39,079 nucleotides of DNA from Octopus sinensis (lineage: Eukaryota): the NCBI RefSeq assembly GCF_006345805.1, contig NW_021835523.1, forward strand, positions 1 to 39,079. The letters are read 5' to 3'. The notes under the pieces were generated by a model. That model was not told the origin of the DNA. It worked only from the letters and a program-made list of their open reading frames with translations, and searched no databases. Every line of letters starts with the position of its first letter. Position 1 is the first letter of the stretch. The position numbers and the translations under genes are program-made. This document shows positions 586 to 28,700 of this stretch, piece after piece.

Positions 586-673
586 ATGCAGTACGGCCGT
601 TGCAAGCTGATCCATTTAATTGAAAAATGCAATCATTAGATCAATTTAAATGCAGTCCCATCGTCAGCTGCAC
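586..673 (-). ncRNA. Degenerate type I hammerhead-like motif
   Basis: gtgcag CTGACGA [long hairpin catttaaattga...tcaattaaatg] GCAA cggccg TA ctgcat; GAAA mutated to GCAA. Confidence 0.58.
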
Positions 674-1555
674 AAATAAATAAATAGAATTTTGACCAGT
701 TGAACACATTAATATGATTTTTCTCAAATGCTTTAACTGAACTAAAAGATGGAAGAAATTCATGTTGCCACTATTGCAGCTAAGAATAAACTACACTTTA
801 GACTACACTTCTAAGGATCACATGAAGCCCACTGGGGTCATAGCTCGTAAAGGATTGTGATTCGTTTCTAATTCATTTATCTCTTTATCAACTACTAAAT
901 CTAAGACAAGAGGACTGTGTCTGTTTAGAATAAAGGGCAAGAGTGAGTTGACTACTACTACTACTACTACTACTACTACTACTACTACTGCTGCTGCTGC
1001 TGCTGCTGCTGCCGCCGCTACCACCAACACCTCCAGCAGCAGCAGCAGCAGCCACCACCACCACCACACCACCACCACTACTACTACTACTACTACTACT
1101 ACTTGTATTTCAGTATTTCGAGATTAGGACCCATTCGGGGAGATATTGAAAAACAACTTAACAGTACAAACCATCTGCTTGTATTATTTATTATAATTTG
1201 CCTTATAAAAATTTTTTTAAAAATCATTCGAAATTAATATAATTACTTCTGATTTAGTCAAGTTATGTTTAGGTTAAGCAAATTACGTAGGCCATAAATG
1301 TGCCCTGCTTCTTTTTTTGTGTAAGAAGTCTAATTCCTTTGACTACTGCAGATAAGGATGGTTAATTGTACTGATGAGGGCTATTGAGACAGAAACACGT
1401 GTCAACGACTGTGCTCTCATCAGCAGTCAATAAACGTTGCCTTTTCTTTAATGGTTTGCCAACACAAGAGAATTCTTAAATCCTGAGATTATCTCCCCTT
1501 CTCAAATGGAACTAGTCCTAGTAAACAAGTGGTAATAATGGTACAACTTCGAGAG

Positions 1556-25700: not shown

Positions 25701-28700
25701 GAACTCACATGTATTTTAGCTGATGAGTACGGGACACGTTTATATGCTGTAATTTTTGCAACATTTAATAAAGCCTGTCCTTGTATGAAACGATTGTACT
25801 AAAAACCTATCCATTCTTGTTGCTTCTTCTCGCGTATATATATATATATATATATATATATATATATATATGTATATATCTGCACACACTAACATATGTA
25901 TATATGTTTATGAATATGCTTATATATCTATATATACATACACATACGTATATGTATATATACATATATATATTCATACATACATATATATATATATCTA
26001 CATCTATCTATCTCTATATGTATATATATATATATATATATATATATTATATATATATATATATGTACGCACACATGTGCGCACGCACACATACATTATT
26101 TTGTGAGACATACTATATATCCGAGTAATCCGAGTATCGAATATCTATAGCTGTTTGTGTTTTGTCGATGTCAGTTATATAATTGTATGTAAAATTTATA
26201 TAATATAGATTTGGAACATGAAGACATAAGAGACCATAGGCTAACTGTACGTTAGAGAGGACGCAGTAAATTACTGGTACATGCTTTCTCGTTTTTCACA
26301 AGTGTTTGGTTCCAAATGATATCCCGCGAAAAACCGTGTTAAATGAATCGGTGATAAATGAATAATCGAGCATATGGGAAACAACGGGCTTAGTTCCGAG
26401 TCCCGAAGCTCTCCCCAGCAATTTACCTAAATAACCAAGTGTTTGGTTCCAAAGGAAATCCCGCAAAATACCGTGTTAAATGAATCAGTGAATAGTAGAG
26501 CATATGGGAAACAACGGGCTTCGTTACGAGTCCCTAAGCTCTCCCCAGCAATTTACCTAAATGACACCATTAAAAACAGGCTTTTAGTACACATAATAAT
26601 TTTGTTTCGTGGTTGGAATTTTAATAACACATGATCAGCGAATAGTTCTTTCAGCAAAAGGCGCGTAGCTCAGTGGTGAGGGCATCGGGTTCACAATCAT
26701 GAGATTGTGAGTTCGGCTCCTGGACGAGGTTGTGTGTTGTTTTCTTAAGCAATACACTTTTTTCGCGTTGCCTCAGTCCACTCAGCTGTAGAAATGAGTT
26801 GTGACGTCATTGGTGCCAAGCTGCATCAGCCTTTGCCTTTCCCTTGGATAACATCAGTAGCACGGAGAGGAGAGGCTGGTTTTCATGAGTGACTGCAGGC
26901 CTTCCATAAATAAAAAAAAACAACCTTGCCCGACTTGTTCCTCGTAGGCTCACTCTCTACGTAAAATCTCCCGGTCATTCGTAAAGTTCCCGGGTCAAAC
27001 TTAATATGTTAATACGTTTTCTATGTCAAGAATTAATATTTAACAGGATAAAAAAAGCACAGTGAATTTACCGTGGGGAATGAAAATTCAAGGTTTCGGA
27101 TACAGACCTTTTAAGAGAAAATTTGACAGAAGAGAAATTAATGTGGGAAAGAAAGAAAGAGAAACAAAGAGAGAGAGAGAGAGAGAGAGAGAGAGAGACT
27201 GACGGAAATAGAGAGAGAGAGAGCACAATTTTTTTACAAGCGATATATCTAAGAAACCGACTGCAACTGAAAAAAAGGACCATGTGAGTTTTTTGTAGTA
27301 TATTCATTAAGTGCCCTCATTGTGGGAAGTAGTAATTCTTAGATATCATGTTATGTCACTGAATAATTTGCAACTGGTATAAATAAGGCGGCGAGCTGGC
27401 AGAACCGTTAGCACGCCGGGCGGAATGCGTAGCCGCATTTCGTCTGCTGTTACGTTCTGAGTTCAAATTCCGCCGAGGTCGACTTTGCCTTTCATCCTTT
27501 CAGGGTCGATAAATTAAGTACCAGTTACGCAGTGGGGTCGATGTAATTGACTTAATCCGTTTGTCTATCCCTGTTTGTCCCCTCTGTGTTTAGCCCCTTG
27601 TGGGTAGTAAAGAAATAGGTATAAATAAATCCAGGTATTACTAGATTTACGTTATTCTTCTGTTGAAAGACAGCAGTCTAAACGTACAAAGATATTGTCT
27701 CTCTTTACTCTTTTGCTCTTTTACTTGTTTCAGTCATTTGAATGCGGCCATGCTGGAGCACCACCTTTAGTCGAGCAACTCAACCCCGGGACTTATTCTT
27801 TTTGTAAGCCCAGTACTTATTCTATCGGTCTCTTTTGCCGAACCGCTAAGTGACGTGGACGTAAACACACCAGCATCGGTTGTCAAACACACAAACACAA
27901 ACACATACATACATATATATATATATATATATATATATATATATACATATATACGACAGGCTTCTTTTAGTTTCCGTCTACCAAATCCACTCACAAGGCA
28001 TTGGTCGGCCCGGGGCTATAGCAGAAGACAGTTGCCCAAGGTGCCACGCAGTGGGACTGAACCCGGAACCATGTGGTTGGTTAGCAAGCTACTTACCACA
28101 CAGCCACTCATGTCTGTTAGCAGAAAAAAGAGATACAAAAAGGTGTTGTTAACCTGGAAGTTTCACCGTTTGTTGAAAGGCAACAACCAGAAAGAAAACC
28201 ACCAAGAGAATATAACACTCACCTAACTTAACTAAATCACAATATGGCATGAATAACATTAAGATCAAAGACAGTCAACAAATAAGCAGAATATTTACCT
28301 ATCAACTGCGTAGATTTCTGAGAAGGGTCTCCTGGTTTTATTTTGGATTCGCAATGGCTTACATTCTAAATTGGCGATTCTTTCTTCTCTGGTTTTACCG
28401 AGACTTCCTACTGGAGAACTCTCAGCTTCATTCATGGTCCTTAAAGCCGTGCCATTACCTGTTAAGAGAGATTATATACACACATTTATATATCTAAATA
28501 CACACACAAACACACACATATGTATGTATGTATACATGTATTATACAATATACACATACATACAGATAAATATTTCAATTAACCTGAAGATTGACTGTAA
28601 CCATAACTCGAATTATTACGAATTGTACAGCCATGAAACGATCGTAGTGTTTTACTCTTTATCTTTTATTAAACTTTTAATAATTTTGATATATATTTAA

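Follow-up and report, generated by a model that had tools for sequence, protein, structure and literature searches.

Type I hammerhead motifs with a long helix II in high-copy repeats of Octopus sinensis, one family of which is tied to a Penelope-like element

A stretch of 39,079 nucleotides (nt) from Octopus sinensis (NW_021835523.1, assembly GCF_006345805.1, forward strand, positions 1 to 39,079), hereafter the window, contains seven copies of a type I hammerhead motif, which represent five repeat families (A to E) and were found with a descriptor scan and a covariance model. The motifs have a common layout, in which stem I and CUGANGA precede a helix II that forms a long, imperfect hairpin, followed by GAAA, a hexamer complementary to itself and U-H. 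It is very likely that they are type I hammerheads carried in repeats, that these repeats are the 3' part of a Penelope-like element (PLE) in family A and PLE derivatives in families B to E, and that the motifs would, as predicted, cut only as dimers. They are of a known kind, the PLE-type type I hammerhead; what is distinctive about them is the length of helix II, the very large number of copies and the presence of a family that looks recently active.

An earlier note on this DNA, made from the letters alone, had listed five such motifs, and all five were borne out by reading each place and by scanning with the same layout (Table 1). Two copies had escaped it: 29824-29906 (+), found with the descriptor, and 29500-29574 (-), found with the covariance model. 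The layout that it had described also stands, except for its variant G(A/C)AA, since the GCAA of the copy at 592-667 is a private mutation; among 11 other distinct copies of family E that were aligned, GAAA occurs in 8, GCAA in 1 and GAGA in 2. The conserved type I core is intact in five of the seven window copies, the exceptions being 592-667, where A13 is mutated to C, and 29500-29574, with G17. Other departures were seen when each copy was set beside its relatives: ~27 nt of helix II are missing from the family B copy, stem I of the family C copy at 28584 is weakened to just 2 bp (C-G, A-U and U.G are found in its relatives), A replaces C at position 15.2 in the family D copy at 29824-29906, and helix III of the family E copy reads CGGCCG where most relatives have CGGUCG. 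Helix II measures 44-64 nt in the six full-length window copies, and in every copy it folds as a long imperfect hairpin (-5.5 to -16.0 kcal/mol). Families A and D are present as inverted pairs, and B, C and E as solo copies. The pair of family A is a perfect inverted repeat with a spacer of 16 nt, directly adjoined by (TA)n on its right side.

Table 1. Positions of the hammerhead motifs in the window and of the repeats that carry them.
Feature	Positions	Strand	Description
Family E repeat unit	533..952	-	~420 nt, sharp ends on both sides; between (GTA)n and TA-rich sequence; no open reading frame, no tRNA-like head
Family E hammerhead motif	584..675	-	Core 667 to 592; helix II 57 nt; hexamer CGGCCG
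Family B repeat unit	~16208-16502
Family B hammerhead motif	16261..16356	-	Core 16348 to 16269; helix II 61 nt; helix III CAAUUG (hexamer CAATTG)
Family A one-sided extension ('tail')	25238..25372	-	~134 nt past the 3' end of the left arm; same sequence beside one arm only at other family A loci
Putative head-to-head pair of 5'-truncated family A PLE 3' ends	25373..25838	.	3' ends outward; arms 25383-25597 and 25614-25828, 100% identical over 215 nt
Family A mirror motif	25405..25499	-	Core 25491 to 25413; helix II 60 nt; hexamer CGATTG
Family A hammerhead motif	25712..25806	+	Core 25720-25798: stem I UUUUAG/CUAAAA, CUGAUGA, 60-nt helix II, GAAA, CGAUUG, UA
Family C repeat unit	~28518-28938
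Family C hammerhead motif	28576..28654	+	Core 28584-28646; helix II 44 nt; helix III CGAUCG
Family D inverted-repeat arms	29163-29747 (left), 29747-30031 (right)
Degenerate inverted partner of the family D motif	29500..29574	-	~20-nt deletion in helix II; G at position 17; covariance model E=2.5e-4
Family D hammerhead motif	29816..29914	+	Core 29824-29906; helix II closes with 13 bp

The comparison with shuffled sequence that the earlier note had suggested as a check gave a strong excess. The pattern CTGANGA-N40-65-GAAA-N6-TA matches the window 5 times, against a mean of 0.14 (maximum 2) in 300 dinucleotide-preserving shuffles, and with a self-pairing hexamer and a stem I of at least 2 bp added there are still 5 matches, against 0.007 in the shuffles. 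Similar patterns were run over the 2.72-Gb genome of the same species, with the reversed pattern as control. CTGANGA-N40-66-GAAA-CGATCG-TA has 4,455 genome matches (reversed control 2); with the hexamer CRRYYG, whose inner four bases are able to self-pair, the count is 13,836 (reversed control 37), which confirms the great abundance that had been surmised. A hexamer unable to self-pair is at the background level, CTGANGA-N40-66-GAAA-CRRRRG-TA giving 60 matches genome-wide and 57 in reverse. This difference, together with the self-pairing of 98.1% of helix III cells in an alignment of 54 copies, upholds the claim that the hexamer varies while remaining self-complementary. Of the first 100 CRRYYG long-spacer matches listed, 9 contain one A.C mismatch, and in the remaining 91 every inner pair is Watson-Crick or G.U. 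The corresponding pattern with a short helix II, CTGANGA-N10-39-GAAA-CRRYYG-TA, has 8,684 matches (reversed control 32), many of which are of the classical form, with an extra base followed by a helix II of 4-7 bp. This one helix III class is thus represented in the genome by at least 22,520 motifs, 13,836 of them with a long helix II. Since 8,684 copies with a short helix II occur in the same genome, long and short forms make up a continuum in which the long helix II is the more frequent extreme, and it is neither a separate class nor a separate invention.

Every window motif is part of its own separate high-copy repeat family. When the genome was searched with ~220 nt around each of them, at least 755 first-look candidates were obtained for family A, at least 236 for family B (16269), at least 1,457 for family C (28584), at least 222 for family D (29824) and at least 1,718 for family E (592), these counts being lower bounds. 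Forty candidates were scored per family, with identities of 69-88% in B, 89-99% in C, 75-90% in D and 80-92% in E; for family A, 42 of 43 scored matches cover all 215 nt at a printed identity of 100%, and for this reason the family looks recently active. BLASTN found no similarity outside the motif among the five window units, and none outside family A when they were compared with PLE-bearing loci. In four of the five window families the distance between the hammerhead and the 3' end is 40-125 nt. As for the mutual arrangement of copies in the genome, the first 100 CGATCG matches listed include 17 (-,+) pairs within 6 kb, no (+,-) pair and 2 direct pairs ~4.5-4.8 kb apart.

Alignment A1 comprises 54 distinct copies from ~14 families, thirty of the loci having been chosen with a pattern in which the core and CGATCG are fixed; the conservation of the core and much of the uniformity of helix III are therefore partly built in by the selection, whereas stems I and II were in no search pattern. 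Pairing is seen in 84.9% of the cells of this alignment; in shuffles the figure is 63.9% (none of 500 reaches the observed value) and with slid partners 32-50%. Double-sided changes affect all 6 stem I pairs and 6 of the 7 basal stem II pairs. Because copies within a family are not independent, the pairing was assessed again with one representative per family (14 in total) and 20,000 permutations, a family-level test that is distinct from that of R-scape. Stem I is paired in 72 of 84 cells, against a permuted mean of 47.3, and basal stem II in 73 of 98, against 44.7; in neither case do any of the 20,000 permutations reach the observed pairing. The covariation of stem I that the earlier note had seen is consequently well founded, and stem II covaries likewise. 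Thirteen alignment columns are invariant, all of them in the core save one in helix II. A covariance model (R1) built from A1, with the window copies among its training rows, recovers the seven window copies, all at E<=2.5e-4, with no other convincing match; the scores are 83.1 bits for A(+), 62.2 for E, 58.0 for D(+), 52.0 for C, 47.5 for B and 29.9 (E=2.5e-4) for the D partner(-).

Rfam gave no match over the window at gathering thresholds, and at E<=10 over the whole window no hammerhead was among the 150 matches listed, all of which were taken up by microsatellite 'microRNA' matches. When short stretches were searched, Hammerhead_1 (RF00163) appeared, with the full model aligned, the loop-less helix III included; the family A copy at 25712..25806 scores 18.4 bits over the full model.

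The interior of helix II is itself partly conserved. An apical hairpin (roughly UGNUGU-AAU...-UUGCA, columns 37-58 of alignment A2) is conserved in families A, E, F1, F2 and one other, which differ in stems I and II, and it shows some compensatory change, one pair being AU, UA and CG in 11, 5 and 2 sequences, respectively. Another inner helix II motif, GGAUUUCAUU, is common to a second group (D, cluster 4, L091/L092).

From its coding capacity and its architecture, family A is best identified as the 3'-terminal part of a Penelope-like retrotransposon. Comparison of four larger loci showed that its 215-nt arm is the 3' end of a 6.3-kb element, which occurs as a 6.3-kb tandem unit at one locus (L021) and as head-to-head pairs cut at different 5' points at three others (L022, L023 and L024). 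The coding region of L021 occupies three frames, split by frameshifts, and includes a reverse transcriptase (RT) piece with a YRDD motif; towards its end the open reading frame (ORF) has a Cys-rich stretch (CxC...C...C) and then a GIY-YIG-like block. The domain order, RT followed by a C-terminal GIY-YIG (both recognised at sub-threshold Pfam scores), is the one expected for a PLE. A homologue of 803 amino acids (aa) with 51% identity has, as read from its sequence, the same RT motif and a GIY-YIG-like C-terminus, and its nearest Atlas clusters carry HTH_animal, GIY-YIG and RVT_1. One named homologue is from an argonaut, in keeping with the cephalopod origin surmised in the earlier note. The endonuclease end had no match when compared with longer proteins, and Pfam at E<=0.01 found no domain in the homologues P0004-P0006. 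The hammerhead is located ~1.45 kb downstream of the stop codon and ~40 nt before the 3' end of the element. Copies end in (TA)n, and at many loci an extra ~134 nt is present on one arm only. Published hallmarks of PLEs include an RT with a C-terminal GIY-YIG, pseudo-long terminal repeat (pseudo-LTR) tandems, an inverted copy truncated at its 5' end, a tail on one side and targeting of microsatellites (PMC8557442; PMC11167929).

Two further features of the family A loci were observed. The one-sided ~134-nt sequence is also found at L021:44-178, L022:7055-7180 and L023:3951-4091, with the side varying by locus. In the tandem locus, the ~340 nt directly after the 3' end (L021:1155-1494 and L021:7461-7799) form a ~90% self-complementary palindrome.

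Outside family A, attachment to a PLE was found for the genomic family F1, in which a PLE endonuclease end lies ~1.3 kb upstream of the hammerhead at two loci and the start of a PLE ORF ~0.2 kb downstream of it at another. The linkage to PLEs put forward in the earlier note is therefore supported for the mirror-pair family A and for F1, whereas families B, C, D and E are tied to no ORF. Proteins of family A had no tblastn match in the window or in the loci of families B to E, and Pfam, applied to 20 of the 28 ORFs in the window that reach 120 aa, detected neither RT nor endonuclease. The ends of family E are well delimited, as 11 of 12 further copies have their 5' end in common, at 949-952 (10 loci, with L062, which matches the whole stretch 1-922, omitted). 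In all probability family E represents a short, non-autonomous element (~420 nt), copied by the PLE machinery and with a hammerhead in its tail, and it can be likened to the schistosome short interspersed element (SINE)-like elements. A reading of family E as a SINE by way of a tRNA-like head was rejected, ARAGORN having found none.

We propose that the motifs would act in pairs, following the dimer logic set out for palindromic helix III (PMC4209133). Two motifs in one transcript, or in two transcripts, would pair through their 8-nt palindromes A-NNNNNN-U and form a shared helix III; this would complete two active sites, each of which would cut after H17 (the A of GUA), so that the RNA of the element might be trimmed out of read-through or tandem transcripts. 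In the family A copy the cut site is predicted to follow position 25798. The window copies would be dead truncated or non-autonomous insertions, damaging changes being present in four of the seven, and families B to E would have been derived from PLEs. Predicted minimum-energy dimer folds contain an intermolecular helix III in families B and C only, A, D and E favouring other pairings, and we regard these predictions as uninformative. Four public runs (contigs, for which the RNA label is a guess) gave, over the 3' region of family A, fragmentary repeat contigs without usable starts or ends.

Several observations weigh against the reading of these motifs as dimer-dependent, PLE-derived hammerheads. 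Among the 54 aligned copies the 10.1-11.1 pair is G-C in only 9, G.U in 17, A-U in 4 and unpaired in 24; the unpaired cases fit a reading with an 'extra base', yet the next pair is then often U-A and not G-C. An insertion of 47-54 nt in helix II keeps both Rfam hammerhead scores (18.4 and 21.3 bits) under the gathering score of 34. The Pfam matches of the family A protein are also below their cut-offs (RVT_1 E=0.0035, 17.5 bits against 29.6; GIY-YIG E=0.002, 18.8 against 22.6). No ORF is found within 1.5 kb of the motif in families B, C, D and E, and no similarity to the family A element was detected in them outside the motif; we infer their PLE origin from the shared motif and from the inverted-pair architecture at other genomic copies. 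Self-cutting is a prediction. Metazoan PLE hammerheads showed low activity in vitro (PMC4209133), and Frangieh et al, 2024 (PMC11167929) report that cleavage was unnecessary for PLE insertion in vitro and that no RNA-seq reads ended at the cut site.

It could also be envisaged that the motifs belong to non-LTR retrozymes, that is, short non-autonomous head-to-tail units whose hammerhead-excised RNAs are circularised and then reverse-transcribed. Helix III, with its 2-bp stem and palindromic tetraloop, has the form of the type I hammerheads of invertebrate retrozymes (PMC7229834); family E is a discrete ~420-nt unit without an ORF; and a 2026 preprint derives animal retrozymes from PLE terminal repeats (10.64898/2026.07.22.740005). 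However, no head-to-tail array of short (about 170-400 nt) units was found around any of the seven window copies, which form two inverted pairs and three solo copies, and the retrozyme part of the earlier note is not sustained for the window. Among the first 100 genome matches listed, the inverted pairs number 17 and the direct pairs 2, and families A and F1 are attached to full PLE ORFs. A retrozyme origin is thus quite unlikely. The notion that chance or shared ancestry alone produced the motifs, with no selected RNA structure, is hardly credible: most copies do come from few founder families, so that raw counts overstate independent events, and the copies used for covariation were chosen with a core-fixing pattern, but the shuffle and reversed-pattern controls contradict it, the hexamer that does not self-pair being at background, and stems I and II, which lay outside the search pattern, have 72 paired cells out of 84 and 73 out of 98, respectively, where permutation gives 47.3 and 44.7.

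A further possibility is that the motif has been retained for some function besides cleavage, for instance as a helix II hairpin recognised by the PLE protein at the start of reverse transcription, with a core that is vestigial or weak. Such a role would suit the conservation of the apical helix II hairpin, with some compensatory change, across families that differ elsewhere, as well as the often weak 10.1-11.1 pair. It would also suit the position of the motif, which in four of five families is separated from the 3' end by 40-125 nt and so lies near the place where reverse transcription starts in the one PLE system studied, in which cleavage was dispensable in vitro (PMC11167929). On the other hand, the 13 invariant columns are nearly all in the core (one is in helix II), a pattern that is partly built in by the core-fixing selection; the palindrome constraint on helix III (13,836 against 60) suits a dimeric ribozyme, whereas a protein-binding hairpin has no obvious need of it; and 8,684 copies in the same genome have a short helix II. 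This explanation of the motif is accordingly judged unlikely, and the dimeric hammerhead remains the preferred one. It can tentatively be suggested, as a speculation of rather low probability, that the conserved apical hairpin, which occurs in families with otherwise unrelated sequences, gives helix II a second functional module, such as an RNA handle for the protein of the element. The ~90-nt ribozymes would then be a distinct structural subclass, overlooked by published descriptors and Rfam thresholds, with more than 13,000 copies, an active family and short non-autonomous offshoots.

Classical metazoan type I hammerheads are those of the newt satellite, the schistosome SINE-like elements and the retrozymes, in which a weak helix III entails dependence on dimers. 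For the terminal repeats of metazoan PLEs, hammerheads have reportedly been treated by Lunse, Weinberg and Breaker in 2017. Their presence in PLE terminal repeats of many animals, palindromic helix III included, was described by Cervera and De la Pena (2014; PMC4209133), and the motifs studied here resemble those of that work in several respects: the type I topology, in which stem I is open and 3-6 bp long, the CUGANGA / GAAA / UH core, the self-complementary helix III, which implies action as dimers, the extra unpaired base that often opens helix II, the location close to a PLE 3' end or pseudo-LTR, the existence of many sequence families per genome, rich in compensatory changes, the opposite-strand motif pairs 100-700 bp apart, and the predominance of solo truncated copies. 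They differ in helix II, an imperfect hairpin of 44-66 nt here and a stem of 3-7 bp with a loop of 3-10 nt in the published descriptor (PMC4209133 supplement), whose 3' core, 'gaaannuh', leaves the present motifs outside it too. Helix III is an 8-nt palindrome, A-N6-U, where the minimal PLE form is of 4 nt, A-NN-U, and the G10.1-C11.1 pair, highly conserved in published PLE hammerheads, is seen in the minority of copies reported above. In terms of numbers, the count of at least 22,520 for one helix III class compares with ~9,000 motifs reported in Xenopus tropicalis (PMC4209133). With Rfam Hammerhead_1, the core and the loop-less palindromic helix III ACGnnCGU align; no loop 1 / loop 2 tertiary-contact motif is evident here, and the context is PLE ends, as opposed to short tandem satellites.

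Family A shares its pseudo-LTR tandems and its inverted 5'-truncated copies with canonical endonuclease-bearing PLEs that have a CX2-5CxxC-type linker (Neptune/Nematis-type; Arkhipova 2006 as cited in PMC8557442). With them it also has in common the one-sided tail and the insertion beside (TA)n microsatellites. It departs from them in the size of its unit, ~6.3 kb where ~3 kb is usually quoted, in the distance between stop codon and hammerhead, and in its tail, three to four times the 30-40 bp of PLE tails given in PMC8557442 and PMC11167929. Craig et al, 2021 (PMC8557442) state that all PLEs outside the Naiad and Chlamys clades have canonical hammerheads. In the full-text literature, a search for 'hammerhead ribozyme' with 'octopus' or 'cephalopod' retrieved no description of cephalopod hammerheads, and two cephalopod repeat annotations (PMC13282606, PMC8967140) list Penelope elements without the word 'hammerhead'. 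The helix II of 44-66 nt and the hammerheads in cephalopod PLEs are apparently undescribed, as far as these searches go. The 'uncharacterised class' of the earlier note is nevertheless too strong a term, given that PLE hammerheads were described in 2014 (PMC4209133) and that 8,684 short-helix-II copies exist in the same genome.

Two consequences may be drawn. One is a gap in annotation: most hammerheads of this 2.7-Gb genome would escape a standard screen, being captured neither with the published minimal descriptor nor at the Rfam gathering threshold. In addition, family A offers a natural test system for what PLE hammerheads do. Beyond these two points, the motifs are an expected feature of a known class of retroelements.

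Some other features of the window and of the searches deserve mention. Sub-threshold Rfam microRNA matches (mir-297, mir-466 and mir-3149) were rejected as artefacts of simple or inverted repeats, and a MIR841 match of the family A palindrome (103 bits against a gathering score of 200) as an inverted-repeat artefact. Overlapping open frames at 33259-33892 (+) give a weak Pfam match, of 28.9 bits where the cut-off is 25.4, to the Spt5 C-terminal repeat; this is probably a low-complexity repeat and not a gene. At 26299-26565, adjacent direct repeats (units of 56 and 82 nt, 90-91% identical, ~130-137 nt apart) constitute a tandem duplication of ~137 nt, unrelated to the hammerhead families. Finally, (TA)n and (CA)n microsatellites are dense in the window, for example at 2400-3200, 13400-15100, 25000-26100, 30000-30200 and 38000-38600.

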